Assembly: GCA_963842085.1 (NCBI GenBank)
Contig: CAWJET010000001.1
Span: 1,248,001 to 1,312,000 of the forward strand
Length of the DNA stretch: 64,000 nucleotides
Source of the DNA: an uncultured delta proteobacterium
GTDB taxonomy: Bacteria > Desulfobacterota > Binatia > Binatales > Binataceae
Reading direction: 5' to 3'
Positions 521 to 19,251 of the stretch are shown here, one piece after another; position 1 is the stretch's first letter, and every line of letters starts with the position of its first letter. The notes below the pieces were generated by a model, which saw nothing but the letters and a program-made list of their open reading frames with translations, made no database searches and was not told where the DNA came from. Made by a program: the position numbers and the translations under genes.

Positions 521-876
521 GCAATTAACTTTACGGTGCATAATGATTTTCTCAAGTGCAGACGCGGCCAAAATGATCCAACAATCAAGACCGATTTGGG
601 AGACACAACACTAGTTTGCCGTCTTCGACGTATAGCGCCTGAGCGCTCGTCGTTAAGAATCGATCGCGAATCACACCGGAGGTTTGCCCACCGCGGCGAG
701 GCTGGTGATAGCCGATGACGAGCTTGTTGCGGCGGGCGGAGCGGAGGTACCACGCAGCGCGTGGCGTCGACGGCGGCCATCGACGCAGCCTGTTGGCAGA
801 ACGTTATAGCCCGAGTTCCCAGATGGTCTGGGGCGCAAGGTTCCATGATTCGGGCTTTCATGCTACATAGCTATAT

Positions 877-1200
877 ATGCGAACACTGGGACGGTTCATC
901 GTTGAGCGGCGCAAGGAGCTTGGACTGGCCGGACGCGAGGTGGTGGCGGAGGTGCGCAACTCCGATGGCAAGCCGATCTCGATTCCGTTCCTGGTCGACC
1001 TCGAACACGACCGCCGCAAGCCTTCCGACGAAGTGCTTGAACAACTCGCCAAGGTTCTCAAGGTCGATTCGGATGTGCTCTACTTTTTGGCAGGGCGGTT
1101 TCCCGCCGACCTCAGCGCGACGACCGTCAACAGTGCGCAGGAACTCGCGGCTGGCTGGAAGGCGTTTCGCCGAGAAGTTAAGCGCAAGAAGCGGCCGTGA
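877..1200 (+). CDS. XRE-family HTH repressor (ImmR-like)
   Basis: N-terminal HTH with LEHDRRKPSDEVLEQLAKVL; coupled to a metallopeptidase; near-identical copy at 51630. Confidence 0.85.
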   Translation: MRTLGRFIVERRKELGLAGREVVAEVRNSDGKPISIPFLVDLEHDRRKPSDEVLEQLAKVLKVDSDVLYFLAGRFPADLSATTVNSAQELAAGWKAFRREVKRKKRP

Positions 1201-1862
1201 AGATGATACCGGACAGGACCCGACGCTTCCCGGAGCGTCCGCACTGGGAGATCCGGGAGCTCGAGCAGATGTGCGAGGAGAGGATCACCACCTTTCTGCG
1301 CCTGCACTTCGGGTTTGAGCGCATCCCGGTTCCGACCGAGGCGGTCACGATGTTGATCGAGCGTGACGCCGCCGACCTCGACCTGGCAACGAATCTTTCC
1401 GACGACATCCACGAGGTCTTTGGGTTCACCCAGTTCGAGCGCGGCCGAAAGCCGCGGGTCGCAATCGCGCGCGAACTGTGGGAGCAACGGCATCGCAACA
1501 ATCGGTTGCGTACAACCCTGACCCACGAATATGGCCACGTGATGCTCCACACCTGGCTGTACGACAAGTACGGCGTTGCCGGCGGTCCGCATCGCTGTTA
1601 CTGGCAGAGCCTGCTTCCAACCGAGCGGGTGTTCGACTGGTTTGAGTGGCAGGCGGGCTACGCCTCAGGTGCCTTGCTGATGCCGGAGAGCTTTGCGCGG
1701 CGCACGGTCGAGGCGTATTTCCAGAATCGATCCGAGCGTCCGCCGGTGGCCAAGGAATCGCCGGAAGCGTCAGTGCTCTGCCAGCGTATCTCCCTCGCGT
1801 TCGATGTATCCGTCGAGGCCGCCACCGTGCGGCTCTCCCAGCTCGGCTATCTGACCGCGTAG
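1197..1862 (+). CDS. ImmA/IrrE-family metallopeptidase
   Basis: RTTLTHEYGH (HExxH) and EWQAGYASGALLMP motifs; GTGA overlap with the repressor. Confidence 0.88.
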   Translation: MKMIPDRTRRFPERPHWEIRELEQMCEERITTFLRLHFGFERIPVPTEAVTMLIERDAADLDLATNLSDDIHEVFGFTQFERGRKPRVAIARELWEQRHRNNRLRTTLTHEYGHVMLHTWLYDKYGVAGGPHRCYWQSLLPTERVFDWFEWQAGYASGALLMPESFARRTVEAYFQNRSERPPVAKESPEASVLCQRISLAFDVSVEAATVRLSQLGYLTA

Positions 1863-1909
1863 CCTGCCAACCAAACCCTCGACCTTTTCGTCCAGACCGA
1901 TCTTCCCAC

Positions 1910-1946
1910 TTGACACTCGCGCCGTGTATCGCTACATAGCGAGTTA
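1910..1946 (+). promoter_or_regulatory. Sigma70-like promoter overlapped by a GCTA-N2-TAGC operator
   Basis: TTGACA at 1910 and GCTACATAGC-GAGTTA starting 21 bp later; same geometry at 8087, 52661 and 59659. Confidence 0.7.
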
Positions 1947-1975
1947 GTCATGTAGCCAAGGGCTCCACAGTTCCC

Positions 1976-2305
1976 ATGATCCCAATCGCAGTAAAGCAAG
2001 CACCGAAGTCGAACCTCCGATGGCGCATCGCCGCCTGCGCCGCGGTCCTCCTCGCGCTTCATGCCGCGCCGTCGTCGGCCGCACAATACGCCGATGTCCT
2101 GCCTTGGGATCAGACGCTCGGCGCGCTTCAGGACATCCTTATCGGTCCCGTGGCTCACGCAGTAATAGCGCTGAACTTCACGTTGTCGGCGATCCTGTAC
2201 GCGGTCGGCAGCCATCAGCGAGCAGGCCGCTTATTGGCTGGCGGATTGGCAGCTTACGCCGCGCTGATTGCTGTTCACTTGCTGACTTTTCTCTTGCCCT
2301 TTTGA
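1976..2305 (+). CDS. TrbC/VirB2-family pilin-like protein
   Basis: Signal peptide, LPWDQTL..LQDILIGPVA motif, two hydrophobic helices. Confidence 0.72.
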   Translation: MIPIAVKQAPKSNLRWRIAACAAVLLALHAAPSSAAQYADVLPWDQTLGALQDILIGPVAHAVIALNFTLSAILYAVGSHQRAGRLLAGGLAAYAALIAVHLLTFLLPF

Positions 2306-2342
2306 GCAGTCCATTCCAAACGACCATTGGTGGAGGTCCGAT

Positions 2343-2618
2343 ATGAAACTCGCACGCATCGCAAAGCCGCTTCGTTCCCTACAGATGCGCGTGACGCTGC
2401 CCGGCGACCTGAACGCCGCGCTCGAGAGCTACGCGCGCTATTACGAACACGTTCACCGCGAGGCCGTGGATTCGAAGGCGCTGATTCCGGAGATTCTCAG
2501 TGCCTTCCTCGACGCCGACCGTGAGTTCCAGTCGTGGTCGCGCTCTGGCGCTCACAGTCAGCAGCGCCACGCCCGAACCGCGTTTTCGACCAACGGCAGC
2601 ACCAAGGCACAACGGTGA
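2343..2618 (+). CDS. DUF2274-family protein
   Basis: L.AALESYARYY....LIPEILSAFLDADREF pattern typical of DUF2274. Confidence 0.75.
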   Translation: MKLARIAKPLRSLQMRVTLPGDLNAALESYARYYEHVHREAVDSKALIPEILSAFLDADREFQSWSRSGAHSQQRHARTAFSTNGSTKAQR

Positions 2619-2643
2619 CTGCCTTCAACGCCAGCACCTATGC

Positions 2644-2681
2644 CGTGCTTCGCACGTGTCTGCAATTGACACGTCACTCAT
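2644..2681. promoter_or_regulatory. Candidate oriT hairpins
   Basis: Two overlapping inverted repeats conserved with covariation at 53392-53430; upstream of RHH-T4CP-relaxase as in trwABC-type loci. Confidence 0.4.
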
Positions 2682-2818
2682 CGCCTGGATGAACGCGAAT
2701 CGTGCAAGTGCCCGTAAACATTGCGCAGACGCTGTCTACAGCAACACGCGTGAAGCAGGCTAAGTCCCCGCCAAATCAGCGTAAACACCCGTCTACAGCA
2801 CCCTTTGGAGAATCAGAC

Positions 2819-3163
2819 ATGAGCACCCGATCGATCTCAACCCGAGTCCCGCAGGAAATCGCCGATCACCTCGCGGCCGAAGCGCGCCGCCGAAGCGTCA
2901 CCGAGAGCGATCTCATCCGCGAGATTCTCGCCGTGCGCTATCTCGCCGCCGGTCCATCACAGATGGAACCTCAGCCACACAGCCAACCGTTGGACGGGTA
3001 CGCGCAGCTCATCTTCGAGATCGCCAAGACCCGTTCCGTCGTTCTGCATTCGCTCGACCACACGCTGGGAGCGGACGTGGTCGACGAGATCATCGAGGCC
3101 TCCGAGCAGACCGCAAGAGAACACGTCGCGCAGGTGCTCAAGAGCAAGGAGATCCAGTCATGA
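2819..3163 (+). CDS. Ribbon-helix-helix relaxosome accessory protein (TrwA-like)
   Basis: GGAG RBS; SISTRVPQEIADHLAAEARRRSVTESDLIREIL RHH pattern; position before the T4CP. Confidence 0.65.
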   Translation: MSTRSISTRVPQEIADHLAAEARRRSVTESDLIREILAVRYLAAGPSQMEPQPHSQPLDGYAQLIFEIAKTRSVVLHSLDHTLGADVVDEIIEASEQTAREHVAQVLKSKEIQS

Positions 3164-4953
3164 CGCCCGCCATCCGTCAGGCAATTCACGAACACACTCT
3201 CCTTGCTTCGCTGGAGTTCAGACTCAGAGAGGCGCTCCGCTACCTCCTTCTGACTGCGGTGATTTGGGTCGAGATGACAGTGTGCCTCGTCTGGCACTGG
3301 ACCGGACATTATGGTGGCCCCGCCGCGCACCGCTATTTCATTCGCTGGTTTCTGGCGTGGTTCCTGACTCAGGAAATTCCGCTGACCTTCGCGTCGCTCC
3401 CCTACCGCGGCGGGCGCTACACCATCACCAGCATGTACGCCTTTCTCAATTACAAGTATTACCTCGGCGGCTCGTTCGCTTCATGGTATTGGCATTACGC
3501 CCCCTGGGGCGCGGTACTCACCGGTCTGATCGAGGCAGCGTGCATCGCCGTTCTCTTCCTGCGGCTGGGTCCATCAGAAGCCAGACATATTCGCGGCATC
3601 ACTCTGGTTTCGGCGCGCAAACTCGCCCGCAAGCTGGGCAGCCGCGCGGGCATTCAGCTGGCCGGCATTCGGATACCGCGCGCGCTGGAGTGCCAACACT
3701 TTCTCATCGCCGGCTCGACCGGCTCCGGCAAGTCGGTCGCGATACGTTCGCTGCTGCGACAGATCAAGGAGCGGGGAGAGACCGCGGTCGTCGTGGACCC
3801 GGAGTGCGAGTTCGTCGCGGAGTTCTACCAGCCCGGTCGCGGCGACTTCATCCTGAATCCGCTCGACGCCCGCTGCCCACGCTGGTCACCTTTGTATGAG
3901 CTCCGCGATGAGAGTCACGACGCAGACTGCGAGGCGCTAGCCGCCTCGCTGCTCCCTGATCCACCCGATGCTTACCACGAGGGTGGGGCGAGCTTCTTCT
4001 TCCGTCAGAGCAGCCGGACGCTGCTGACGAGCATCTTCCGCATAGCCGAGCCCAAGGAAGCCGCGTCGATCCCGCGCCTGCTGACCCTGCCGCGAGCTGA
4101 TCTCAGACGGGCGCTGGCAGGGACGCCAGCCGAAGCGCTCATCGATCCCGGAGCGCACGAGCAGGGTGCCGGCATAGTCGCCACCGCCGCGAATGCGACC
4201 AAGTCGTTCCAGTACCTGCCCGTGCAGGCGCCGCGAACTTGGAGCGCACTGGAGTGGTCGGCGCAGCGCAACGGCTGGCTCTTCCTGACTTCGTCGGAGG
4301 AGTCAAAGGACGCTGCGCTTCAGCTGCAGAGCGTGTGGCTCGATTGCATCATCCATCGGCTGATGAGCGGCGAAGTTGGGCCGCGCCGACGTGAACAGGT
4401 CTGGATAGTAGCCGACGAGCTTGCGGTGCTGAGACGGCAGGCGAAGCTCGAGGATCTGGTCGTCCGCGGGCGTAAGCGCGGCCTCGCGGTCGTGCTTGGC
4501 TTTCAGGCCATCACCCAATTGCGAACGATTTACGGCGCCAACCAGGCCGCCACACTGGTCGCCTCGCCCGCCACCAAGCTGATTCTGAGAACCGGAGAGC
4601 CTGAGACGGCGCAATGGTGCAGCGCGCAGATCGGCGAGCACGAGGTTGAGCGCGGCCATCTGAGCGCTAACGCGAGCCATGGAGAGCGATACTCGTTCGG
4701 TATTCGCGAACAGCGAACGACCGAACCCGCGGTGATGCCCGCCGAGATGCAGCTGCTCCAGCCGCTGTCGGGCTACCTCTGCATCACAGGTCATCACCGC
4801 TCGTTCGTGCGCTTCGACTATCTTGCGCCCGAAGTCCGACAGGAAGGTTTCATCCCGCGCGTCAATCTGCCTGCGCCGGTGAAGCCAGCGCGACGGGCGC
4901 AGGTGATCCCGCTGCATTCCGCAGCGGCGAGCAAACGAAGGGAACGGATCTGA
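3160..4953 (+). CDS. Type IV coupling protein, TrwB/TraD family
   Basis: Two N-terminal TM segments, Walker A GSTGSGKS, NPLDARCPRW, Walker B WIVADEL, GRKRG. Confidence 0.92.
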   Translation: MTPAIRQAIHEHTLLASLEFRLREALRYLLLTAVIWVEMTVCLVWHWTGHYGGPAAHRYFIRWFLAWFLTQEIPLTFASLPYRGGRYTITSMYAFLNYKYYLGGSFASWYWHYAPWGAVLTGLIEAACIAVLFLRLGPSEARHIRGITLVSARKLARKLGSRAGIQLAGIRIPRALECQHFLIAGSTGSGKSVAIRSLLRQIKERGETAVVVDPECEFVAEFYQPGRGDFILNPLDARCPRWSPLYELRDESHDADCEALAASLLPDPPDAYHEGGASFFFRQSSRTLLTSIFRIAEPKEAASIPRLLTLPRADLRRALAGTPAEALIDPGAHEQGAGIVATAANATKSFQYLPVQAPRTWSALEWSAQRNGWLFLTSSEESKDAALQLQSVWLDCIIHRLMSGEVGPRRREQVWIVADELAVLRRQAKLEDLVVRGRKRGLAVVLGFQAITQLRTIYGANQAATLVASPATKLILRTGEPETAQWCSAQIGEHEVERGHLSANASHGERYSFGIREQRTTEPAVMPAEMQLLQPLSGYLCITGHHRSFVRFDYLAPEVRQEGFIPRVNLPAPVKPARRAQVIPLHSAAASKRRERI

Positions 4954-4956
4954 GCC

Positions 4957-7689
4957 ATGCTGGTAATGTCGAAAGGCGCGCTCAGTGTCGGCCAGGCCGA
5001 GACCTACTATCAGGAGAAGTACTCCGAGGATGATTACTATACCGAGTCGCACCGCGTCACCGGCGAATGGTACGGAGGAGGGGCCGAAACTCTCGGGCTG
5101 AGCGGCGCAGTCAGCGAGGAGGATTTTCGGACCGTGCTGCGGGGAATGAGACCCGGTACGAGCGCGGTCCTCGTCAGCGCCGCCGCCGGCCGGGACGAGC
5201 GCCGCGCAGGCTGGGATGCGACCTTCAATGCGCCCAAGTCAGTCAGCATCCAGGCGCTGGTTGGCGAAGATTCGCGCCTGCTAGAGGCGCACCGGCGTGC
5301 GGTCGAGCGCGCGCTTTCGGAACTTGAAAAGTTCGCCCAGGCGCGTCAACACCGGGGACAGGAGTGGGTTACCAGCGCCAACATCGTGGCCGCCCGCTTC
5401 GACCACATTGCCGCGCGGCCATCGGAGACCGGTGCTAAAGACGGCTACGGCCCCGACCCTCACCTCCACACCCACGTCGTAATCGCCAACATGACGCTTA
5501 GGCCGGACGGCATGTGGCGGAGTCTCGACCCGGTTGAGATCTATCGCAGCCAGAGCTTCGCGACCGCGGTTTACCGCTCGGAACTTGGCCGCGAGGTCCA
5601 AGCGCTTGGGTATCGAATCAGCGTGACTGCGGCCGACGGGCGCTGGGAGCTGCAGGGATACACGCGCGAACAGGTAATGGCGTTTTCGCGCAGACGCCAG
5701 GACATTGAAGCACTTCTGAATCGCCAAAACTCGACCGGAGCGGCAGCGGCGCAGATCGCCGCCCATCAGAGCCGGCTTGCCAAAGAAAAGCGCAACGAAA
5801 ACGAGCTTCGCGCGGAATGGAAGGCGCGCGCTCATGACAATCAAATCGCGGTCGCCGAGATTTCGGAACTCGCGCTCGCACGCGGCCCCTCGCGGGCGGT
5901 TTCTCCGGTGGCGATCGAGGAAGCGCTCAGCTTCAGCGTAGCTCACAACACCGAACGCGAGGCCGTTACTGACCGGCGGGCTCTGGAACGCACCGCTCTT
6001 CAGTACGCGATGGGAATCGCCGATCTCGAGGGCGTGCGGCGCGAGACCGGCATTCGGGAATCACGTGGCGATCTAATCGCCCTCGCTGTCTCCCCTTCGT
6101 TCCCGGGAGTCGTCTACACCACACCCGAGATGGTGGCGCTGGAGCGCGAGAATCTCGAACTTATGCGCCTCGGCAGAGGGCGCGCCCAGGCGATCACTAC
6201 CGAACAGCACGCGCGCAGTTGGGCGTCGGGGCGCTCGATATCCGCCGAACAGGCACAGGCCGCGGCGCTGACACTGACTGCTACCGATTGGCTTACCTCG
6301 ATCGAGGGGCGCGCAGGCGCAGCGAAGACGACTACGGTTGGAGCGCTCAACGACTTCGCTGAGAACGCTGGCTACGCGGTGCGCGGTTTCGCTCCGACCA
6401 CGCGCGCGGTCAAGGCGTTGTCCGAAGCGGGCATCGAGTCGAGGACCGTGGCAAGTCTGCTCGCAAGCCCGCTTCCTGATCGGGCACCCAAAGAGGTGTG
6501 GATCATCGATGAGTCGAGCTTGCTCGGTACTCACCAGATGAACGCCCTGCTGCACAAGGCGCGAGAGGCCGGGGCCGGTCGGGTCGTCTTCGTCGGCGAT
6601 CAGCGCCAGCATCACGCCATCGAGGCCGGCCGGCCCATCCAACAGATGCAGCAGGCGGGCATGTCCGTCGCGCGATTGGAGACCATCCGTCGCCAAGTCG
6701 ATCCCGGATTGCGTGAAGCGGTCACGCTCGCTTCGCGCGGAGAAATCGGACACGCGATCGCACTACTCGAGCAGCAGGGCCGCATCCGCGAGATTGTCGA
6801 TCCGAATGAGCGCCACGCAGCGATTGCGCGCGAATATCTTGCCGCGCACGAAGGAGCTGAAAAGGTTCTCGTCGTCAGCCCGGCCAACGACGAGCGCCGC
6901 CAGTTGAACGCCGCAATTCGCGCGGCCCTCAAGGACCGCGGGCACATCGGCTCCGACGGACGAGAACAGATCGTGCTCGTCAACCGCGATCTGACCCGAC
7001 CCCAGCGCAAACGCGTCCAGAGTTACGAGGTCGGCGACGTGCTCCGATTCCGCCGCGGAAGTGCGCGCCTGAGTATCGAGCGCGGAAGTTACGCCGGGAT
7101 CGAAGCAATCGATCCGGAACGGAACCAAATGGTGGTACGAGATGAAAGAGGAAAGGCTGTCACCTACGATCCCTCGCGCCTGTCCGGAGTCGAGGTCTTC
7201 CATCAAGAGCGGCGCGTATTCGGCATGGGCGACCGGATTCAATTCCGCGCGCCGGATCGTGCGCTCGGTGTCGCCAATGGAGAGTTTGCGGCAATCATTG
7301 CCATAGACGATCGCAAAGCACGTCTGCAGATCGACAACGGGCGCGAGATCAGCGCGGCCATCGCTCGTCTCAAGCACATCGACTACGGCTACGCGTCGAC
7401 TTCTCATTCAAGCCAGGGCGCCACGGTTGATCGTGTGATCGCAAATATCGATACGCTCCGCTCGGCTGAGCTTGTTAACCGCAAACAGTTCTATGTCTCG
7501 ATCAGCCGGGCACGCCTCGCAGCGACGATCTACACCGACGACCGTTCGGCCCTACAGCACGCGGTCAGCCGCACTCGCGAAAAGTCGATTGCCTTGGAGC
7601 GTCTCCATCTAAACGCGGGACGAGAAGTCACGATGGTTCCGGAACCACGCCGCCAGACCATCACGCCCAGCTACGGAATCCGCAGGTGA
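4957..7689 (+). CDS. MOBF (TrwC-family) relaxase-helicase
   Basis: YY..DDYY, DATFNAPKSVS, DPHLHTH (HUH); helicase motifs VGDQRQH, YASTSHSSQGATVD, YVSISRAR. Confidence 0.95.
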   Translation: MLVMSKGALSVGQAETYYQEKYSEDDYYTESHRVTGEWYGGGAETLGLSGAVSEEDFRTVLRGMRPGTSAVLVSAAAGRDERRAGWDATFNAPKSVSIQALVGEDSRLLEAHRRAVERALSELEKFAQARQHRGQEWVTSANIVAARFDHIAARPSETGAKDGYGPDPHLHTHVVIANMTLRPDGMWRSLDPVEIYRSQSFATAVYRSELGREVQALGYRISVTAADGRWELQGYTREQVMAFSRRRQDIEALLNRQNSTGAAAAQIAAHQSRLAKEKRNENELRAEWKARAHDNQIAVAEISELALARGPSRAVSPVAIEEALSFSVAHNTEREAVTDRRALERTALQYAMGIADLEGVRRETGIRESRGDLIALAVSPSFPGVVYTTPEMVALERENLELMRLGRGRAQAITTEQHARSWASGRSISAEQAQAAALTLTATDWLTSIEGRAGAAKTTTVGALNDFAENAGYAVRGFAPTTRAVKALSEAGIESRTVASLLASPLPDRAPKEVWIIDESSLLGTHQMNALLHKAREAGAGRVVFVGDQRQHHAIEAGRPIQQMQQAGMSVARLETIRRQVDPGLREAVTLASRGEIGHAIALLEQQGRIREIVDPNERHAAIAREYLAAHEGAEKVLVVSPANDERRQLNAAIRAALKDRGHIGSDGREQIVLVNRDLTRPQRKRVQSYEVGDVLRFRRGSARLSIERGSYAGIEAIDPERNQMVVRDERGKAVTYDPSRLSGVEVFHQERRVFGMGDRIQFRAPDRALGVANGEFAAIIAIDDRKARLQIDNGREISAAIARLKHIDYGYASTSHSSQGATVDRVIANIDTLRSAELVNRKQFYVSISRARLAATIYTDDRSALQHAVSRTREKSIALERLHLNAGREVTMVPEPRRQTITPSYGIRR

Positions 7690-7734
7690 CCGATTCATGC
7701 CGAGCGTTGCTGTCGAATCGTTCCGTCCATCGTC

Positions 7735-8020
7735 GCTGCGCTATGAGCGCGGGCACTCGGGCTCCGCAAGCTTCGCCGCTCGGCCACGCGGCGCACGGCG
7801 CCGCTCGCGCTCCGCTTCGCGCCGCTGCGAAGGTAGCGCTTGCTGCGCTTGCAAACGCGCCACCGGCGCTGTCGCGCCGGACGCTGCGCTCGTCACGGTT
7901 GCAGCGCTCCACTGCGCGCATCTCAGAATCCAGCGCCGCCCTCCAGACTCGGTTGAGAGGGCGGCGCCTTCAAAATGCTGCGCACTCACTCAGGCATCGG
8001 CACGCCCTGGCCCTTCGGGC
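7735..8020 (-). other. Conserved non-coding hairpin-rich region (ssDNA origin- or promoter-like)
   Basis: Eight GCTNCGC (GCGNAGC on minus) plus an 11-bp stem at 7933-7967; conserved at 59341-59612. Confidence 0.5.
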
Positions 8021-8086
8021 ACGCGGGCGGAGACAATTCAGATTGGAGCCCTCGGGCTTCGTAACAATGGCGGCTTAAATCTGCTC

Positions 8087-8123
8087 TTGACTTAAACTTC
8101 GTAATTAGCTAGATAGCTAGTTA
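8087..8123 (+). promoter_or_regulatory. xis promoter with GCTA-N2-TAGC operator
   Basis: TTGACT at 8087; GCTAGATAGC-TAGTTA at 8108. Confidence 0.65.
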
Positions 8124-8181
8124 TGCTGTAAAGGGAATTTCATTCGAGTCTGGACTGACAGCGCCAGCCAATTTTTGTTCG

Positions 8182-8472
8182 ATGGCTGCGAACCACAAAT
8201 TTGAACGCGAAAGCGAAGGAGCAGCGGCACGGCAAGTGGCGCTATCGGCTGTACTGCGCGCGACCGCTGGGGATGCCAAAGTCCTCGAACTCTATCAGCT
8301 TCTCACCGCAGAACAGGCGGCCCGCTTTCTCGGCCTGGCTGAGCCGACCCTTCGCGACATGACTTATCGACACGAGTTGCCTCACGTAAAGGTTGGCAAG
8401 AGAGGCGTCCGTTATCGCGTTATTGATTTGATTGGCTGGAGCGACCGGCGGAGTGTTGCAGCTGCATCTTGA
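8182..8472 (+). CDS. Excisionase-type HTH DNA-binding protein
   Basis: LLTAEQAARFLGLAEPTLRD..LPHVKVGKRGVRY; directly upstream of the integrase. Confidence 0.85.
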   Translation: MAANHKFERESEGAAARQVALSAVLRATAGDAKVLELYQLLTAEQAARFLGLAEPTLRDMTYRHELPHVKVGKRGVRYRVIDLIGWSDRRSVAAAS

Positions 8473-8570
8473 GCGAGTGATCACGAAATAGCGAAACCGT
8501 GCTGACCAGGCCTTTTGTAACAGGAAACACGCCTGCTACCGGCTGACCGGCGGAGGAGGAGGCGACGAAG

Positions 8571-9659
8571 ATGGCACGAGTGGGTAGCAGGGATCGCGGC
8601 CTTTTTGAGCGGCCGACGGGTTCCGGATCTTGGTGGATTAGGTATCACGATGTGAACGGAACAGAGCGGCGGGAGAAGGCCGGCCCGAAAGGACTTGCGC
8701 GCAAGCTTTACGAGAAGCGAAAGACTGAAATCCGTGAAGGCCGCTACTTTCCACCCGAACGCCGAAAACCGGTGATGTTTGCCGATATCCTCCAAAGCTA
8801 CCAGCGCGCCGCAGAAGCGGAAGGCCGGTCTGAGGGATGGGGTCCAGAACGTTACCGCCGCTTGCGCGAGAGGTTCGGCGGCCAACCTGCAGCCTCAATT
8901 ACTCCAGCAGCGGTCGAGGCTTTCCGTGATGAATTGTCGCGCGACCACGCGCCTGCAACCGTCAACCGCCACCTCCAACTCTTGCGCGCCATTTTTCTCC
9001 GAGCGCTCCGCGACGGCAAAGTCGAATCAGCTCCAACTGGCAAGGTCAGATTCTATCGCGAGAACAACAAGCGCGTGCGCTATCTGAGCGATGAGGAGGA
9101 ACTCCGGCTCTTCGATGCGTTGCCGAATTGGTTACGTCCCCTCGTTACCATCGCGCTCCACACGGGTATGCGCAGAGGAGAGCTGCTCAATCTCAATTGG
9201 GCCGACGTTGATTTCACCAGCGGAACTATCACGGTCCGCGAACCGAAGTCAGGAGAAAACGAGCACGTCGTGATGAACGATACCGCGAGCCAGACGCTTC
9301 GAGCTCTATGGGAGAAGCGATCAAAAGTCGTCGCGATCAAGCCTCGGGGACAAGACAATTCGGGCGGTTACGTTTTCACCGCACCTGAAGGCGGTTACAT
9401 TCACACTCTCAACCGATACTGGTACCCAGCGCTAGGACGCGCCCAGATCGAATCCTTCCGCTTCCACGACCTGCGACACACCTTCGCGTCGCGCGCTGCT
9501 ATGAGCGGCGTCGATCTGTATACTCTACAAGGTCTCATGAGGCACCGAAGTCCACAGATGACGCAACGCTATGCGCACCTAAGCGTGGCGCATCAGCGAG
9601 AGGCCGTTCGGACGCTTGACCGCTGGCAGCAGCGACAAAATGCGGCGTCGCAGAGTTGA
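8571..9659 (+). CDS. Tyrosine recombinase (phage-type integrase)
   Basis: TGMRRGE, HDLRHTFAS, MRH and TQRY catalytic motifs; strong GGAGG RBS. Confidence 0.95.
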   Translation: MARVGSRDRGLFERPTGSGSWWIRYHDVNGTERREKAGPKGLARKLYEKRKTEIREGRYFPPERRKPVMFADILQSYQRAAEAEGRSEGWGPERYRRLRERFGGQPAASITPAAVEAFRDELSRDHAPATVNRHLQLLRAIFLRALRDGKVESAPTGKVRFYRENNKRVRYLSDEEELRLFDALPNWLRPLVTIALHTGMRRGELLNLNWADVDFTSGTITVREPKSGENEHVVMNDTASQTLRALWEKRSKVVAIKPRGQDNSGGYVFTAPEGGYIHTLNRYWYPALGRAQIESFRFHDLRHTFASRAAMSGVDLYTLQGLMRHRSPQMTQRYAHLSVAHQREAVRTLDRWQQRQNAASQS

Positions 9660-9663
9660 GGAT

Positions 9664-9687
9664 TGGTGCCGGTTCTGGTGCCGGTTC
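9664..9687 (+). repeat. 12-bp tandem repeat, candidate integrase arm-type sites
   Basis: TGGTGCCGGTTC x2, about 95 bp from the att core. Confidence 0.55.
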
Positions 9688-9780
9688 GCCAACGAATTTC
9701 GACGGAATCCAACGAGTTCAGACGATGAAAAGTCTTTGTATTTCTTGGATTCTTGAGTAGCAGTATCGGCGTCGGCGCGT

Positions 9781-9826
9781 TCTCATAACCCGGAGGTCGA
9801 AGGTTCAAATCCTTCCCCCGCAAATA
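9781..9826 (+). repeat. att site: 3' half of initiator tRNA-Met (46-bp direct repeat with 61314-61359)
   Basis: CTCATAACCCGGAGGTCGAAGGTTCAAATCCTTCCCCCGCAA matches the tRNA-fMet anticodon loop to acceptor; no 5' half upstream. Confidence 0.9.
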
Positions 9827-10023
9827 ATCCCTATTTTTGGGCACGATTCCGCAATCGAGCTCAGGGCTTTGAACCACACTCCTGAGCAGAGAATTTTGCA
9901 AGTCAGCGGGAAAGGCCTGTCAAAATCTTGATTTTTGGTAGCAAGCGGGCACGCTAGACTCGCCCCCTTGGGTCAAATTGGAGGGGTTCGAGGTCGACAG
10001 TCTGCCGAACAGACTTTTAGCGT

Positions 10024-11730
10024 TTAGCCGGGAATCGAGGGCTCGAGCCCCTGCCCCGCAACCATCAAACCAAACACCTTGCCTGTGAAGAGCAGACCGC
10101 CTGCGGTTGGCTTGATGGTCAAACGGGTGCACCTGTTGAAGCCAAGCCGAGGGAATTTGCGGTAGCTCTCTTCAAGTCCAAGACCGTGCTTCTCGAGATG
10201 CTGCGGGGTGAGTTTCTTCAACGCCTTCTTGCATATCGGGCACGAAATTTCCCGTTCACCGACGTCGGCGATCGTTATGCACTCCAGGGTTTGCTGCAAA
10301 AACTCCCGACCCAAATCGACGTGCGCGCACAGCGTCTCCGGCAAACGCGAGATGAAGTCCTCGACAACCGTGCGATCGTATCGAACCTCATTGACAGGCG
10401 ACCGAGGATCCGAACGAGCCCCCTTCTCCAGCGATTGAACCTGGTCCCAGATCTGTTGATATGAAAGCAGCGCCTCTTCCAGCGCACGGCCACCTAGCGC
10501 ACCGCTCTTGACGGCGTCCATTATTGCATCGGCCTGAGCCCTCATTTTCTTGAGCTGTAGATGCGTGTCACCATTAGCATTGCGTTGAACGATCTGCGTC
10601 GCCGCCTTGACCAGATCATCGACGAAGCAGGTCAGACGGGACGCGAGTTCGGACAAAATAACATGTTCAAGTGAGATGCGATGGATGCGGATCGGGTTCG
10701 AGCAAATCCCTGACTCGGCGTGGCTGCGACACCCGTAATGATTTTTGCCAACAACACTGAGGCACGCTTCGCATGTCTCACAAAACAGGAGGCCCGAAAG
10801 CAGATGCGCAGTCCGGGAACGTCCATGTGCGAACAGACGTCTTCGGGTGCGCAGGCGGTGCTGGACCGCTGCCCAGAGGTCGTCGTCAATGATACGGAGA
10901 TCCTCGGATTGCCTGACCTCCCATTGCTCAGGCGGCCGCCAGCGATAAGCGCGACGTCCGGTCGAGGGATTCTTAAGCCACTCCCTGCGATTGAAGACGA
11001 AGTGCCCAATGTACTTTTGATTTTGAAGTATCAGGAAAACCGTGTTGGGCCGCCACGATCGCCCGTTCTTCTCAGCATTCAGGCGCTTCGCTACGGCCTT
11101 TTCGCCGTTACCTTCTCGGAACTCCTGAAAGATGCGCCGAACAACCACCGCTTCAGCAGGATTTATCTTGATCCTGTAGCCGACCGGTTCCGATCTTCCG
11201 TGAGATCCTCCGGCCTCTGATGCACTCAGGCCGTGCACCGGCTCAGAAATGAATCCGTAGGTTCGGCCGCCGGTTGCGTAACCTTTTAGGAACTGACCGT
11301 CTAAACCGCGTTTCGTCGCTTTTCTGAGATCATCGAGATAGAGCTCGTTGACCAGGGATTTCACCGTCACGCTGATCTTGGTTGTATCGTCCGCTGTGTT
11401 GATGTTGTCGGCGACGGCGATGACGCTGATTCCGATGAATCGCAAGCGCTTGATAATCGCATCGGTATCACCAATGTCGCGCGAGAGCCTCGAGAGCTGA
11501 TCGACAACGATGGCATCAAACGGGCGCGGCTCAGCAGCTGCCGCGTCGAGTGCTCTTTGCAGCCCCAACAGCAACTTAAGGCTAGCGCCGGACGTGGCCT
11601 CGTCTGAGAACTCTGAAATGATCTTATGCCCGCGTTGATACGACCATCTCTGCACGATGCGCAGTTGGTCGGCGATCGACGTTTCCCGTTGATTGTCGGA
11701 ACTGAAGCGACCGTAAAACGCGAGTCTCAC
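10024..11730 (-). CDS. Large serine recombinase with an extra C-terminal C2H2 zinc finger
   Basis: YGRFSS catalytic motif, DQLSRLSRD, recombinase domain, LLSGLLFCETC zinc ribbon, CPIC-x9-HLEKH. Confidence 0.9.
   Translation of the reverse strand: MRLAFYGRFSSDNQRETSIADQLRIVQRWSYQRGHKIISEFSDEATSGASLKLLLGLQRALDAAAAEPRPFDAIVVDQLSRLSRDIGDTDAIIKRLRFIGISVIAVADNINTADDTTKISVTVKSLVNELYLDDLRKATKRGLDGQFLKGYATGGRTYGFISEPVHGLSASEAGGSHGRSEPVGYRIKINPAEAVVVRRIFQEFREGNGEKAVAKRLNAEKNGRSWRPNTVFLILQNQKYIGHFVFNRREWLKNPSTGRRAYRWRPPEQWEVRQSEDLRIIDDDLWAAVQHRLRTRRRLFAHGRSRTAHLLSGLLFCETCEACLSVVGKNHYGCRSHAESGICSNPIRIHRISLEHVILSELASRLTCFVDDLVKAATQIVQRNANGDTHLQLKKMRAQADAIMDAVKSGALGGRALEEALLSYQQIWDQVQSLEKGARSDPRSPVNEVRYDRTVVEDFISRLPETLCAHVDLGREFLQQTLECITIADVGEREISCPICKKALKKLTPQHLEKHGLGLEESYRKFPRLGFNRCTRLTIKPTAGGLLFTGKVFGLMVAGQGLEPSIPG
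10030..10064 (+). repeat. Degenerate tRNA 3' end (Met-like), antisense to the recombinase C-terminus
   Basis: GAGGG-CTCGAGC-CCCTG T-arm followed by CCCCGCAACCA. Confidence 0.55.
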
Positions 11731-12018
11731 GAAGGTTCAACCGGATCGCGAAGCAAGACGGTACAGATTCGATGTGATTTTCCGCTGTTCTCGACAATTC
11801 TGAAGCGGCTCGGATTGGTCTCGACGTACTTGCGAAAGCATCGGATCAGGGTATCTAACGTAGGGCGCAGACGATTCAAACTTTGCCGACGGTTGTACTT
11901 GTGCTTGCTTGGCATGATTTATCTTTCAAGAATTCATTGGATATCAAATATCCTAAATTGGGATATTCCAAATTCGAATGTATCATCCAGAACAAGACTT
12001 GGGAAGAGGCAGTAGGCA

Positions 12019-12240
12019 ATGGGGCGGAGTCTGCATTCCGAGAGATACAAGCACCTGCTCGCGCGCTTGCGAGAAGCTCGACGTCAAGTGGAGCTCACCC
12101 AGGTCGAGGTCGCACGCCGGCTGCGGCGTCCTCAATCGTACGTCTCAAAGTGTGAATCCGGAGAAAGACGGATTGACGTGATCGAGTTGGCCGAATTCGC
12201 GAATCTGTACGGAAAAAGCATTGAGTTTTTTGTCCGGTAA
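12019..12240 (+). CDS. Small XRE-family HTH regulator
   Basis: LTQVEVARRLRRPQSYVSKCESGERRIDVIEL. Confidence 0.85.
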   Translation: MGRSLHSERYKHLLARLREARRQVELTQVEVARRLRRPQSYVSKCESGERRIDVIELAEFANLYGKSIEFFVR

Positions 12241-12340
12241 GAGCGACGACTCGCTTTGCTCTCTGCAGCTCTTTTGGTTGTTTGACGGTCGGATACTGCG
12301 CACAAACCGCAGGCCGAATTTCCCCCATAGAAGCCATTGC

Positions 12341-12374
12341 GGTACCGGGGGTTCGAATCCGCCCCTCTCCGCCA
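12341..12374 (+). repeat. tRNA-Ser-like 3' end fragment (att remnant)
   Basis: GGTACCGGGGGTTCGAATCCGCCCCTCTCCGCCA; ~215 bp downstream of a serine recombinase. Confidence 0.6.
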
Positions 12375-12590
12375 GACAGTCTGTAGTGCTTCCCTATAAT
12401 CTGGAGTGAGCGGAAAATCCCCGCGTGAGGCGGCGCTTGTGCGCTTGATGCGAACCGGAGAGCGCGAGACCTGCACCCGCTTCGGCGAATTTCCCGGGTT
12501 TGTCTCCAGGCGCAGAAAAGCCGGTTCGCTTCACGCTTCGAGCGAAATTCGCTCATCCATCGCCTTTCTGAAATGGGGCCGGTCGTGGCT

Positions 12591-14276
12591 CTAGTCGATT
12601 CCGATCGCCTTCAACTGCGCCGGCCATTCGAGCGGCAGATCGATCCGGTTGAGCAAAGTTTCGGTACTGAGCTCAGTTGGCTGTCGTCCTTGGCAGATTG
12701 CCTCGACGATGCCGGGTGCTGTGAATGCCAGGCGAGAGAGACGCTCGACGTAACGCACAGCGATGCGCTCGCGTCGCGCGATCTCCGCTAACGAGCGCAC
12801 GCCGCCCGAGGCCAACTCTTCAAACCACCCCCTCGAACGCGCCACCGCCTTGAGCAGTGCGGGATCTACCTTCCGTGGCAGATCGTCACCGGCCGCGATG
12901 ATAATGCGTGTCTCCACCCCGCGTCGTTTCATTCTGAGCGGGACGAAGCGAGATAAGTTGAGGTTGCTGCTGGTCCGCAGGCCTGCACGCGAGCACTGGA
13001 CTTCGATTCGGAGTGTCACCGTTATGCCGTCATCGTGCATTTCGACTTTGCTCACGATCTCGACAAGGGCCGCTGCGGCATCGGCCTCATTCTGCAGCCT
13101 CCGCGAGAAATTCGACGCCGATTCGAGAGTGGCTCTGAGATCGGGCGAATCGATGCCTGACTTCTCAAGCTCCTCCAGCAGTCCCGCCCGATCGCTCAGG
13201 ATGTGTCGCGCGGCGATCGCTACCGCGCGCTCAAGCTCGGGCGCCGAGAGTCGCCACCGTTTTCCGTTGTCTCTCGCCGAGCCACCAACCAGGCACTTCG
13301 AGACGTAGTAGCGGTAGCGCCGCGTGCCCTTGGTCGCTCCCTGTACGTACAACGGCTGACCATCGGCGTCGAAGAGCTTTCCGGCAAGGGGACTACTAAT
13401 CGATCTGTTTGATGTACCGCGACCGCGTGCGGCGTTCTCATTGAGCCGCTGCTGCACTCTCTCCCAGAGTTCCTTCGACAGAATCGCTTCGTGCAGCCCC
13501 GGATGGCGTTCCTGCTTGTGCCGGATTTCACCTATGTAAATCGAGTTAGCCAGCAGCTCGTACAATGCTCCACGAGAGAACCGGCACCCTCCCGACTTGA
13601 TGCCGTTGCGAGAGACGCGGACTTTCGACTTTATCCCTCTCTGCTCCAGTTCCTTGCTCAGCTGCCGGACGCACCCCAGTTCTAGGTAGCGCTCATAGAT
13701 GTGCCTGACAGTTTTGGCTTCCGCAGGATTGACGACCAGCCGCCGCTCGCGAATGTCATATCCCAGCGGCGGCACGCCTCCCATCCACATGCCTTTGCGC
13801 TTGGAGGCGGCTATTTTGTCCCGGATGCGCTCGCCCGTTACCTCCCGTTCGAATTGGGCGAAGGAAAGCAGGACATTGAGCGTCAGCCGGCCCATCGAGG
13901 TGGTGGTGTTAAACTGTTGCGTGACGGCGACGAACGACACTCCGTGCGCATCGAACAGTTCGACCATCTTGGCGAAGTCGGCCAGCGAGCGGGTCAGGCG
14001 ATCCACCTTGTAGACCACGACCACATCAACGAGGCCTTCACCGATATCAGCGAGCAGGCGCCTTAGCGCGGGCCGCTCCATGGTGCCGCCCGATAGTCCG
14101 CCATCGTCGTATGCGGTCTTTACAAGTTTCCAGCCCTCGCTTGCCTGGCTCTTGATGAACGCCTCGCACGCTTCGCGCTGGGCGTGCAGAGAGTTGAAGT
14201 TCTGCTCGAGCCCTTCCTCAGAGCTCTTGCGCGTATAGATCGCGCAGCGGCGGGACCGAGGTTTAGATTGCTCCAT
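12591..14276 (-). CDS. Large serine recombinase (DUF2924-associated type)
   Basis: CAIYTRKSSEEGLEQNFNSL, YKVDRLTRS, FAQFERE, GMWMGG. Confidence 0.93.
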   Translation of the reverse strand: MEQSKPRSRRCAIYTRKSSEEGLEQNFNSLHAQREACEAFIKSQASEGWKLVKTAYDDGGLSGGTMERPALRRLLADIGEGLVDVVVVYKVDRLTRSLADFAKMVELFDAHGVSFVAVTQQFNTTTSMGRLTLNVLLSFAQFEREVTGERIRDKIAASKRKGMWMGGVPPLGYDIRERRLVVNPAEAKTVRHIYERYLELGCVRQLSKELEQRGIKSKVRVSRNGIKSGGCRFSRGALYELLANSIYIGEIRHKQERHPGLHEAILSKELWERVQQRLNENAARGRGTSNRSISSPLAGKLFDADGQPLYVQGATKGTRRYRYYVSKCLVGGSARDNGKRWRLSAPELERAVAIAARHILSDRAGLLEELEKSGIDSPDLRATLESASNFSRRLQNEADAAAALVEIVSKVEMHDDGITVTLRIEVQCSRAGLRTSSNLNLSRFVPLRMKRRGVETRIIIAAGDDLPRKVDPALLKAVARSRGWFEELASGGVRSLAEIARRERIAVRYVERLSRLAFTAPGIVEAICQGRQPTELSTETLLNRIDLPLEWPAQLKAIGID

Positions 14277-14742
14277 TGGTCTGCTCCTGGCGATTCGCCT
14301 TCAGTCCGAAGAAGCGCGGCCCCGACCACTTGGTGCCGGTGATTCGGTAAGCGACCTCTGACAGCGACTTGTACGGCTTGCCCCGGAAGACGATGCCGTC
14401 CTCGCGGACGATCACCTGATGCTGGGTGCCGTGCCACTCGCGTAGCAGAACTGTTCCCGGTTTGAGAGTCGGTTGAGGTGCCACGCGCATCGGCCGGTGT
14501 GCCGACGCAGCGGCGGCGACCTTTGCCAGCAATCGGCGCGTCGAGGGCTTGAGCCCACCGAGCGCCTTTTCCTGGATCCGATAGGCAAGGGCGCGCACCA
14601 GCAGATCGCGGCTGATGCGCCCCGGCGGTTCGGTGCAGTAGAGCGCCCACCAGCGTTCCTTGAGATCGGCCGGAGTAGCCTGTCGTAGCGCCGCGATTTC
14701 GTGCGCCAGTGCCGAAGTAGTTGAAGATAATTTGTGTTTCAT
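14263..14742 (-). CDS. DUF2924 domain protein
   Basis: LAYRIQEKALGGL, PGTVLLREWHG, ITGTKWSGPRFFGL. Confidence 0.9.
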   Translation of the reverse strand: MKHKLSSTTSALAHEIAALRQATPADLKERWWALYCTEPPGRISRDLLVRALAYRIQEKALGGLKPSTRRLLAKVAAAASAHRPMRVAPQPTLKPGTVLLREWHGTQHQVIVREDGIVFRGKPYKSLSEVAYRITGTKWSGPRFFGLKANRQEQTNGAI

Positions 14743-14951
14743 GTGCTGCCCGCCCTCCAGCGCGGGCAGTCACACACATCGCTCTGGTTCGCCTCCGAAG
14801 CCAGTCAACGTGTTCACGCTCCGTTCGCCTTCTCATCGCCTTCGCTCGCGCTGGCAGGTCGCAGGAAAATGAGCGCTCACCGCTCGCTTCGTGGGCGCAA
14901 CAGAGCAAACATCCACGGTCAGCCAATATATGGCTGAAGGAGACCAAGAAA

Positions 14952-15191
14952 ATGGAACGCGCGAAATTGGCAAGTGGTAAGAAGATTGAACCGACCGACA
15001 CCAAGCATCGGCGACTGCCAGGGAACAAGGCCGAGCGCAAGCCGAAGGCAGAGAAGCTCGTATGCCGCTACTGCGGCTCTGACGACCTGGCGCCGAGCTT
15101 CATCAAGCGACGCGATCGGCGGTGCCGAAAGTGTTTCAGCAAGCGGTACGGTTCGGCGGCGCGGGAGAAAAAGGCAAAGAGCAAAAAGTAG
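14952..15191 (+). CDS. Small basic zinc-ribbon protein
   Basis: AAGGAG RBS; CRYC...CRKC; lysine-rich; followed by a terminator. Confidence 0.6.
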   Translation: MERAKLASGKKIEPTDTKHRRLPGNKAERKPKAEKLVCRYCGSDDLAPSFIKRRDRRCRKCFSKRYGSAAREKKAKSKK

Positions 15192-15208
15192 CGCCACGAG
15201 GCACGACA

Positions 15209-15243
15209 GGGGATCGGGCGCCCACACGCTCGGTCCCTTCTTC
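15209..15243 (+). terminator. Intrinsic terminator-like hairpin
   Basis: GGGATCGGGCG/CGCTCGGTCCC stem followed by TTCTTC. Confidence 0.5.
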
Positions 15244-15477
15244 GCTCCGCGTAACCCTCTCGGCCGGGGCCGGTTCCAGTCTGCTACAGGAAGTCGCCTG
15301 AGAGTTCGAAACAACTGCGCTCCACCATCCAGTCTCTGGGGTCGCGGACATCTCGGAGAATCAATCGAAATCCGCGCGTGTGCGCGCGATTCGCGATCAC
15401 CCGGGGACCCGGAGAGCATCTCTTTCGGCGGGATTCGCCCGAATTGGCCAATTCCTCTCTCGGCGCGATTTGTCTAG

Positions 15478-16752
15478 CAGGCTGCGGAAAAAGTTCGATT
15501 AGTTAGGAATTTGTCCACTCGGGTTAGTTGTAAGTGTTGCTGAGCGAACATCTAAAGGGCTGCGGAGTAGAGGACCGACAGGTTCAGGTGTTTGCTTCAG
15601 GTGGCGATTGGCAAGAGGTTGCGCATCCTCACCAAGTTGTAGGCGGCGGCCGCGAAGGTAAACACCCAACCGACCCGGGCGGCACCCCGATGCCGGGTTT
15701 TGCGCAAGCCGCCGATGGTCTTGATCCAACCGAAGATCTCTTCCACCCGTTTGCGCTTGATCTGACTGATGGCGTAACCGGGATGGCGAGTGGTGCGGCG
15801 GTCGATGGCGCTGTGCATTTTGCGCGCGATGTGCGGAGTGACCTGATACGCGCGCAACTCGCGCACCAATTCCTTGCGGTCGTAACCCTTATCGGCGCCC
15901 AGTGTGACTCGATGCTGGCCCACGATCTGTGCCGCCATCGCGAGGGCCGCCTCGGGTTCGGCGCTGCCGCTGGCCTGAGTCAGCCGGGTGTTGACCACCA
16001 AGCCGTGGCGATTGTCCATCTGCACGTGGCCGGCGTAACAGAGCTTGGCCTCTTTGCCCGACCCTTTGCGGGCCAGCCGTGCCTGGGGATCGGTGGTCGA
16101 TTGGTGCGTGGCGTTGGTGCGGCGCTCACCATGGAAGTCCACGCTCGGGTTACCGGATCATCGGGCGGGATTTGCTCGTCCTCTCCTTCGCGCTTGAAAC
16201 TCTTGTGTCCGGCCCAGGCTTCGATCAGCGTGCCGTCCACCGTGAAATGCTCGTTGGAGAGCAGGTCTTGGGCACGCGCCTGCTCGAGCACCGCGTTGAA
16301 AAAGCCCTGCGCTACCTCGCCCACCAGCAAACGCTCGCGGTTCTTGGTGAAAACGGTCACGTCCCATACCGGGTCGTCGATGTTGAGCCCCACAAACCAA
16401 CGAAACAGGAAGTTGTAATCGAGCTGCTCCATCAAAAGTCGCTCGCTGCGCACCGTGTAGAGCACCTGCAAGAGCAGCGCGCGCAGCAGCTTTTCCGGCG
16501 CGATCGACGGCCGCCCGCTGTTCGTGTACACCGCGTCGAAGCGCCACGACGACTCCTTAAGCGCGGCGTCCACCATTACCCGGATCGCTCGCAACGGATG
16601 ATCCTTGGGTACTCGCCGCTCCGCCGATATGTAACTGAACATTCCGCTCTGCTGATGGTCCACCCCACGCATCACCGTCACCTCCTCTTACAACCTCTTC
16701 CTACTCCACTATATCCGATCGAGCGGAAAACTCCTCGTTTTTCCGCAGCCTG
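15478..16752 (-). mobile_element. IS5-family insertion sequence (1275 bp)
   Basis: TIR CAGGCTGCGGAAAAA / TTTTTCCGCAGCCTG; CTAG target duplication on both sides. Confidence 0.92.
15597..16681 (-). pseudogene. IS5-family transposase, frameshifted near 16150
   Basis: Two overlapping ORFs: GRPSIAPEKLL...HFTVDGTLIEAWA and TTDPQARL...GADKGYD...VEEIFGW. Confidence 0.85.
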
Positions 16753-17234: not shown

Positions 17235-17270
17235 GGCTCTCGTGCAGAATTAGATCGACCGCCTTTTCGG

Positions 17271-18383: not shown

Positions 18384-18385
18384 GC

Positions 18386-19235: not shown

Positions 19236-19251
19236 CGGCATGGCCGTTGCT
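19236..19251 (+). promoter_or_regulatory. Sigma54 -24/-12 promoter of the amt operon
   Basis: CGGCATGGCCGTTGCT (GG-N10-GC). Confidence 0.6.

Follow-up and report, generated by a model that had tools for sequence, protein, structure and literature searches.

Channel-less mobilizable islands of Binataceae that retain a tail-less VirB2/TrbC-type pilin

Mobilizable islands are thought to outnumber self-transmissible ones. To our knowledge, how they fit a borrowed conjugation channel is understood for very few of them, and SGI1 is the sole island that we know to replace channel parts. A 64,000-nucleotide stretch from the genome of an uncultured delta proteobacterium of the family Binataceae (GenBank contig CAWJET010000001.1, here C1, positions 1,248,001 to 1,312,000; hereafter the window) raises the question of why an integrative element without a channel should carry one of the channel's subunits, a VirB2/TrbC-type pilin, ahead of its transfer genes. 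Two copies of a module occur in the window, both with the gene order helix-turn-helix (HTH) repressor, ImmA-like protease, pilin, DUF2274 protein, ribbon-helix-helix (RHH) protein, type IV coupling protein (T4CP), MOBF relaxase, excisionase (Xis) and integrase (Int), and no gene for VirB3 to VirB11 was present among the scanned open reading frames (ORFs) of the window. Both observations had been made in an earlier reading of the letters alone (the sequence-only reading), and they were borne out by Pfam and NCBIfam searches. The two copies share this order at 86% identity in one part and 67-71% in the rest, so the arrangement is not due to chance. On balance, we consider it rather probable that the modules belong to integrative mobilizable islands that descend from conjugative ancestors, transfer through a borrowed channel and keep the tail-less pilin in use.

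Descent from conjugative elements

A relaxase search limited to one genome per species yielded 66 related loci, which together with the four copies of the genome itself made 70 loci that were mapped with profiles. Nearly all of the 66 originated from Candidatus Binataceae or from metagenome-assembled genomes (MAGs) labelled as delta-proteobacterial, often with several loci per genome. Pilin and DUF2274 genes without any channel gene in the 3-8 kb seen upstream were found in 40 of the 70 loci. Four loci contained the pilin only and no channel, eight had channel genes directly upstream (L059, L061, L066, L074, L076, L078, L080 and L082), four had neither the pilin-DUF2274 pair nor a channel, three of them with a broken coupling protein, and 14 were too short to classify. 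This leaves 56 informative loci, of which 44 are channel-less with a pilin and eight carry virB3-virB10/traF. Had homologues normally carried a full trb operon, the module would have been a deletion remnant, as the sequence-only reading had pointed out; eight of the 56 loci do carry one, but the channel-less form is the majority. It is an old, diversified lineage and not a one-off remnant.

Extended DNA was examined for four of the channel-bearing loci. In the type A layout the genes follow each other as HTH, ImmA, pilin, virB3, virB4 ... virB10, traF, DUF2274, RHH, T4CP and relaxase. The type B layout runs HTH, virB3, virB4 ... virB10, traF, about 1 kb of other sequence, pilin, DUF2274, RHH, T4CP and relaxase, with no pilin 5' of virB3. 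DUF2274 follows traF or the pilin in seven of the eight channel-bearing loci (L082 shows none), and the pilin directly precedes DUF2274 in three of them. In L074, three pilin-like ORFs surround DUF2274 (6032-7367), two with a normal tail and one of aberrant form. Removal of the virB3-traF block from either layout leaves exactly the order seen in the window, which marks the islands as channel-less descendants of conjugative elements. Outside this family, DUF2274 follows trbI at the end of the trb genes in two proteobacterial plasmids, in one of them with a small hypothetical gene between, and 58 of 66 plasmids holding DUF2274 were typed as conjugative. By gene order, then, the islands descend from conjugative elements through loss of virB3-virB10 and traF, which is a known route: for plasmids, the available portion of PMC9185392 describes the loss of channel genes with the relaxase kept as the commonest direction of change. 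In the proposed course of events, a conjugative Binataceae ancestor with the pilin and DUF2274 last in its channel operon would have lost virB3-virB10 and traF.

Selection on the pilin and its C-terminal end

The pilin of copy 1 (1976..2305, plus strand) has 109 amino acids (aa) and lacks a C-terminal tail. Its counterpart in copy 2 (52728-53057) is likewise intact at 109 aa and 79% identical, despite the damage to the transfer genes of that copy, as had been noted from the sequence alone. Read by eye, the island pilins show a signal peptide followed by two hydrophobic helices, and the motifs LPWD and GPxAH are conserved among them. BLASTP aligned the island pilin with the pilin of a type IV secretion system (T4SS) resident elsewhere in the genome at 37% identity over 68 aa (E 5e-11). 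A profile built from the island pilins gave RP4 TrbC as its top match in the PDB (E 0.18), and a single island sequence gave no pilin match in the same database. In a tree of 58 pilins (34 island, 17 resident-type, five type B and two type A, with fragments and three frameshifted rows left out), the 34 island pilins formed one group beside the type-B pilins (SH-aLRT 84). Their branch lengths indicated much faster divergence than in the channel-linked pilins.

Selection was assessed from Nei-Gojobori counts of nonsynonymous and synonymous change, expressed as median pairwise dN/dS and as pN/pS over independent pairs. For the island pilin, 41 sequences provided 389 pairs with dS 0.1-1.5 and 20 independent pairs, giving a median dN/dS of 0.38 and a pN/pS of 0.47 (binomial p 1e-32 against neutrality), or 0.34 and 0.43 for the mature part only. 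The corresponding values were 0.23 and 0.36 for DUF2274, 0.25 and 0.18 for the coupling protein, and 0.18 and 0.24 for the relaxase. An ORF at 7697-8095 scored neutral in the same loci (0.93 and 1.03), and the lower value of the island pilin therefore reflects real constraint. Resident-type channel pilins (17 sequences, three broken ones dropped) gave 0.13 by both measures. The proposals that the pilin is VirB2-like and that it does not evolve neutrally were thus both supported.

The island pilins end 0-1 residue past a conserved proline in all 36 scorable cases (four more lack the proline yet terminate at the equivalent position; seven fragments were not scored). Channel-linked pilins continue for 6-7 residues past it in 20 of 20 resident-type and four of five type-B ORFs; both type-A pilins finish with 7 residues of another kind. 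The alignment of the resident pilin with cyclic RP4 TrbC (78 residues; 9vf4_c, E 1.4e-5) reaches the final TrbC residue, after which the resident pilin runs on for four more. In RP4, according to the accessible text of the pilus paper that cites 9VF4 (PMC13434634), TraF cuts four C-terminal TrbC residues as it links Ser1 to Gly78. Aligned with the resident pilin, the island pilins stop one or two residues before this cyclization junction, and a whole-genome profile search found no traF in the islands. The tail-less end and the lack of traF together suggest that the island pilins cannot be cyclized in the manner of TraF. A single clade, purifying selection and a uniform loss of the tail, all read from sequence comparison, indicate that the pilin is not a relic.

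Operon control, island limits and channels in the genome

Conservation of the sites before it suggests that the pilin gene opens a transfer operon under repressor control, and the sequence-only reading is supported on this point. A promoter-like TTGACA (1910-1915) and TACATA (1933-1938), separated by 17 nt (1910..1956 with the repeat, plus strand), are conserved in copies 1-3, as is an overlapping inverted repeat on the same strand, GCTACAT (1931-1937) and ATGTAGC (1950-1956). Of the 44 channel-less loci, 36 have a TTGACA-type site ahead of the pilin. Directly 5' of the repressor gene, where the homology between copies begins, lies a GCTACATAGC box (862..871, plus strand), and wherever a locus has the HTH gene upstream of the pilin, the same box with at most one mismatch stands 5' of that gene. 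In loci whose repressor is downstream, another palindrome (AATTATG ... CATAATT) occupies that position. The repressor is an ImmR-like protein of HTH_3/XRE type (107 aa, 877..1200, plus strand; Pfam HTH_3 22.1 bits, cut-off 23; pairwise dN/dS 0.08), followed by an ImmA/IrrE-like zinc metalloprotease (221 aa, 1197..1862, plus strand; Peptidase_M78 20.3 bits, cut-off 22) with the HExxH motif in the form HEYGH. Their Pfam scores are just below the cut-offs, and the two genes are conserved together in 40 of the 44 channel-less loci. An ImmR/ImmA-like switch of this kind would govern the promoter of the pilin-DUF2274-RHH-T4CP-relaxase operon. The NCBIfam scan assigned no family to the pilin, DUF2274 or the ImmA-like protein.

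DUF2274 (91 aa, 2343..2618, plus strand) was identified by Pfam PF10038 with 48.3, 49.0, 45.3 and 44.7 bits in the four copies (cut-off 23.8). In its monomer model (predicted local distance difference test, pLDDT, 75), an extended N-terminus is accompanied by two helices. Comparison of the sequence with solved structures gave nothing significant (best E 0.021, a designed helix bundle), and comparison of the fold with solved folds gave no match with E < 1; the weak rows included the ribbon-helix-helix proteins ORF56, Reg576, CopA and the TraM N-terminal domain, which is suggestive. A two-copy model scored 0.44 against 0.00 for the best control, a mark reached, in the calibration of the modelling tool, by 20 of 30 solved same-chain pairs and by 1 of 23 solved single chains. 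Three runs shared at least 85% of contacts with a partner pLDDT of at least 62, and the symmetric contacts (16:16 and 17:17) are ribbon-helix-helix-like. The models make it probable that DUF2274 is a small DNA-binding protein that dimerizes in ribbon-helix-helix fashion. No mention of DUF2274 was found in the literature searched.

The remaining genes of copy 1 all lie on the plus strand. The RHH protein in the TrwA position (2702..3163) gave a weak CopG/RHH match with a conserved part at about 2801-3133, and its gene stands immediately 5' of those for T4CP and relaxase in all mapped loci. It is followed by a TrwB/TraD-type coupling protein (597 aa, 3160..4953; Pfam TrwB_AAD_bind 297 bits) and a MOBF (TrwC-type) relaxase-helicase (910 aa, 4957..7689; Pfam TrwC 277 bits, NCBIfam MobF 254 bits with cut-off 100, relax_trwC 223 bits with cut-off 145.5), whose His-triad motif HLHTH is invariant in the alignment. 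The neutral ORF mentioned above (132 aa, 7697..8095) has no family match in Pfam or NCBIfam and is a doubtful gene. Counterparts occur in 27 loci between relaxase and Xis; the stretch may not be a gene and could instead hold a site such as an origin of transfer (oriT). The module ends with an excisionase (8182..8472; Pfam HTH_17 42 bits, TIGR01764 29.9 bits with cut-off 28.8) and a tyrosine integrase (362 aa, 8571..9659; Pfam Phage_integrase 103 bits).

Copy 2 (51613..61359) has the same gene order, also on the plus strand. The HTH (51630-51953), ImmA-like (51950-52615), pilin and DUF2274 (53095-53367) genes are all intact. The T4CP, in the RHH and T4CP region at 53559..55289, stops at profile position 256 of 387, where an IS3-family insertion sequence (IS; 55299..56629) with orfA (55299-55652) and orfB (55649-56629) cuts it. 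The relaxase (56761..59285) is represented by two ORFs, 56761-57087 and 57084-59285, with a 196-bp gap relative to copy 1. Xis (59741-60028) and Int (60167-61222; together 59741..61222) are whole. Identity between the copies is mosaic, 86% over 860-2681 and 67-71% over 2999-9826 of copy 1, and the values in other genomes are 95-97% for the repressor against about 60-67% for the relaxase. These comparisons indicate that the regulatory/pilin part and the transfer part recombine separately.

The element had initially been delimited as 862..9826, but att repeats show this span to be the conserved module only, within islands about five times larger. Position 860 was rejected as an element boundary; it is merely the start of the homology between copies, with no att repeat there. 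A 42-bp att repeat corresponding to the 3' half of a tRNA-Met gene lies at 9782..9823 (plus strand), at the right end of island A and the left end of island B, and again at 61315..61356 (plus strand), at the right end of island B. Its core occurs exactly three times in the genome, the third being C1 1209938-1209979 within the tRNA-Met gene itself (C1 1209906-1209982), 38 kb left of the window. Accordingly, a tRNA scan of the window found none. From these three exact repeats, islands A (about 47.8 kb) and B (about 51.5 kb) are placed in tandem at tRNA-Met, an arrangement of islands that is well known (PMC5704250, available part). Island A begins 38 kb left of the window, with only its right end inside, and island B (9824-61356) lies entirely within it.

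Each of the two islands consists of 38-42 kb of cargo and the conserved module of about 9 kb at the right end. Island B cargo (9824..51612) includes serine recombinases, IS elements, two-component systems, amt/glnK, two kdpABC sets (32181-44654) and a Na+/H+ exchanger. At its left end, two large serine recombinases and a DUF2924 gene (10024-14742) may represent a further element nested in island B. The cargo of island A comprises a PIN toxin, transport and outer-membrane proteins, IS elements and a sulfatase. We also considered, and rejected, the idea that a channel lies hidden among the cargo genes, as no channel gene was found in the 33 scanned cargo ORFs of island B, the 36 scanned cargo ORFs of island A or, beyond the resident element described below, the whole genome.

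In total, the genome holds four islands of the family, at three different tRNA genes and with at least three integrase types. Copy 3 belongs to an island at tRNA-Asn (30.5 kb between 34-bp repeats) and copy 4 to one at tRNA-Val (28.3 kb between 76-bp repeats); every module gene is whole in copies 1, 3 and 4. Copy 4 has its repressor and protease 3' of the relaxase rather than 5' of the pilin. Directly upstream of its pilin promoter (G000 C1 2041915-2048000) are cas3 and GSU0053/GSU0054-type cas genes, a CRISPR-Cas system carried as island cargo. Among the 36 related loci with an integrase, a tRNA gene adjoins the integrase in most, and a second att repeat within the visible 3-7 kb upstream was seen only in L040, so that large cargo is the rule in the related islands. 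In L026, L039 and L050 the integrase reads into a tRNA-Sec gene in the same direction.

With their own Int and Xis, 42-bp tRNA repeats, a relaxase and no complete channel of their own, the islands have the features of integrative and mobilizable elements (IMEs). A complete channel including VirB4, as in an integrative and conjugative element, is missing from them, and the sole VirB4 gene of the genome lies at C1 7440-9959, 1.2 Mb away. The proposal of a channel-less, integrase-bearing element with its own T4CP and MOBF relaxase is thus supported. By gene content the islands are non-canonical IMEs, because they also hold their own T4CP and one channel subunit; T4CP-bearing and channel-subunit-bearing IME classes have already been named in the portion of PMC5704250 at hand.

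As the channel genes have been lost, transfer must use the channel of another element. The whole genome was searched with custom profiles built from related loci, and Pfam searches agreed. By the custom profiles it holds five pilins, four DUF2274 proteins, four TrwB-type T4CPs and four relaxases. VirB3, VirB4, VirB8, VirB9, VirB10 and the channel-linked TraF occur once each, all at C1 5-20 kb; a second, weak match of the TraF profile (44 bits, on contig C2) is a signal-peptidase-family relative. The element at C1 5-20 kb contains virB8-9-10, traF, traD, an RlxS-like relaxase, a VirD4-type T4CP, trbB, trbC, virB3, virB4 and trbL. Its pilin (Pfam TrbC 51 bits) precedes VirB3 and VirB4. The sequence-only reading had proposed looking for a trb T4SS elsewhere in the host, and this complete-looking P-type T4SS appears to be the one candidate helper in the genome, through whose channel the islands here could transfer.

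A hand comparison of VirB4 and T4CP lists covered 165 genomes of the family Binataceae, including the unpublished genomes G162, G167, G023 and G106 (VirB4 list) and G022 (T4CP list). VirB4 was present in 57 of the 165 and this type of T4CP in 44, often in several copies. VirB4 accompanied the T4CP in 28 of these 44 genomes, as against 29 of the remaining 121, in tallies where kin are not independent and some of the 44 are channel-bearing relatives.

Alternative explanations and comparison with known systems

Several observations weigh against the proposal of mobilizable islands with a pilin in use. The helper itself may be defective, since the resident trbB is split across two frames (G000 C1 10721-11716 and 10843-11271; locus L015), separating an N-terminal part from the ATPase core, and the cause is either a true defect or a fault in the assembly. 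The T4CP occurs without VirB4 in 16 of the 44 genomes, seven of them at least 95% complete. The Pfam assignment of the island pilins to TrbC (PF04956) is marginal, with 28.4 and 33.2 bits in copies 1 and 2 and 26.9 and 27.8 bits in copies 3 and 4 at a cut-off of 27.9; of the two family calls made from sequence alone, that of DUF2274 was clear and that of TrbC exceeded the cut-off only in the first two copies. Four loci have no pilin, and in one of them, L031, the module is otherwise whole. The pilin is broken in seven of the 44 channel-less loci with a pilin. Constraint on the island pilin is about threefold weaker than on channel-linked pilins, and the loss of the tail could be the decay of a part no longer needed. 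Furthermore, in a quick relaxase tree of 37 rows the channel-bearing L078 falls inside the channel-less clade, and this placement, together with the recombination between modules, means that a single loss event is not proven. With regard to the broken genes, 17 of these 44 channel-less loci have a split T4CP and 18 a split relaxase. Frameshifts in long genes of the MAG loci (L025-L090) are probably long-read errors, and broken genes in single MAG loci are for that reason not readable as decay; the broken pilin ORFs may have the same origin.

The weaker constraint and the pilin-less L031 would suit an explanation in which the pilin and DUF2274 are leftovers, caught between the promoter and the important genes, with constraint arising from exclusion, membrane housekeeping or translational coupling. 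Both genes exactly flank the block that is lost in comparison with channel-bearing relatives, and partly decayed conjugation loci are described as common intermediates in plasmids (PMC9185392, available part). Nevertheless, the pN/pS of 0.47 over 20 independent pairs contrasts with 1.03 for the neighbouring ORF in the same loci, both pilin motifs are kept, and the tail-less end is uniform. The clade is also old, with identities down to about 30% for the pilin and about 60% for the relaxase, yet the pilin ORF is open in 37 of the 44 loci. We therefore regard leftovers as unlikely, if a serious alternative. Somewhat less likely still is that the island pilin enters the helper pilus to retune or jam it, whether for exclusion of rivals, lower helper transfer or protection from pilus-specific phages. 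A subunit incapable of cyclization might cap or poison a filament built of cyclic ones, the fast divergence of the island pilins would fit such a role, and SGI1 is a precedent for an island that replaces helper channel subunits (PMC5704250; PMC5389848; available parts). Nothing in the present data separates help from harm to the helper, however, the module has no linked phage or exclusion gene, and the pilin is probably co-transcribed with the transfer genes of its island, as would suit a part in the transfer of that island itself. Finally, that the islands are immobile, decaying remnants that have lost transfer altogether seems very improbable. Copy 2, with its truncated T4CP and broken relaxase, and the possibly broken resident trbB would point that way, but copies 1, 3 and 4 have all genes whole, the four copies occupy three tRNA genes with at least three integrase types, the T4CP is present in 44 of 165 family genomes and often multicopy, and the pN/pS of T4CP (0.18) and relaxase (0.24) indicates strong purifying selection.

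Among these explanations, the most likely, as far as sequence evidence goes, is that the pilin serves the island's own transfer through a borrowed channel. It would act as a TraF-independent, probably linear subunit supplied by the island to that channel, by analogy with the subunits of SGI1. A more specific idea, which we put forward only tentatively, is that a ready-trimmed pilin is fed into the foreign channel, either to serve the island's T4CP or to weaken the helper pilus, with DUF2274 tied into this function. If true, conjugation would be parasitized at the level of the pilin, by a pilin needing no cognate peptidase. Should the pilin work in the helper's channel, this would be a second, different route to the takeover of a conjugation machine and a natural test of what pilin cyclization is for. 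Independently of this, a large and old lineage in the uncultured soil phylum Binatota keeps a pilin form that would be expected to escape the usual maturation, and DUF2274 gains both a context, as the last gene of P-type channel operons that is kept when the rest is lost, and a fold hypothesis.

Mobilizable descendants of conjugative elements, such as these islands, are already known. What is new is that a long-lived lineage has retained nothing of the channel operon but the pilin and DUF2274, and that its pilin is under selection and uniformly tail-less. In the literature searched, integrative mobilizable elements were treated together with VirB2 and a helper in a T4SS nomenclature review, the available parts of which describe no pilin-bearing island. 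The closest relatives are the type-B Binataceae elements (L078 with L101, L074 with L104, and L080), which have DUF2274, RHH, TrwB-type T4CP and MOBF relaxase in the same order. Their pilins are the clade neighbours of the island pilins, and they share with the islands HTH/ImmA-type regulation and a tyrosine integrase adjoining a tRNA gene. Type B carries virB3, virB4, virB8-virB10, traF and a 6-residue pilin tail, whereas the islands of the window have none of these. The RHH protein, TrwB-type T4CP and TrwC/MOBF relaxase-helicase in one operon resemble trwA-trwB-trwC of R388, an IncW plasmid with its own full channel. Unlike in R388, the module of the islands is chromosomal, integrase-borne and preceded by a lone pilin and DUF2274.

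SGI1 is a mobilizable island in which a few channel subunits of its own replace those of the IncC helper (PMC5704250, available part). It supplies TraN, TraH and TraG of an F-type channel and is without a coupling protein of this kind; in the Binataceae islands, the retained subunit is, on sequence grounds, a P/T-type pilin, and it is accompanied by their own T4CP and relaxase. The pdCONJ plasmids are short-lived and close to conjugative relatives, as the accessible text of PMC9185392 has it, in contrast to the Binataceae islands, in which most loci (44 of 56) are channel-less with a pilin and make up a deep, diversified clade. With regard to RP4 TrbC, the resident pilin spans the whole mature protein plus four residues, and a gene for TraF, an S26 peptidase, lies in the same element. 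The island pilins differ from RP4 TrbC in ending one or two residues before the residue used for cyclization, in islands that carry no traF, and thus represent a tail-less form of this pilin type.

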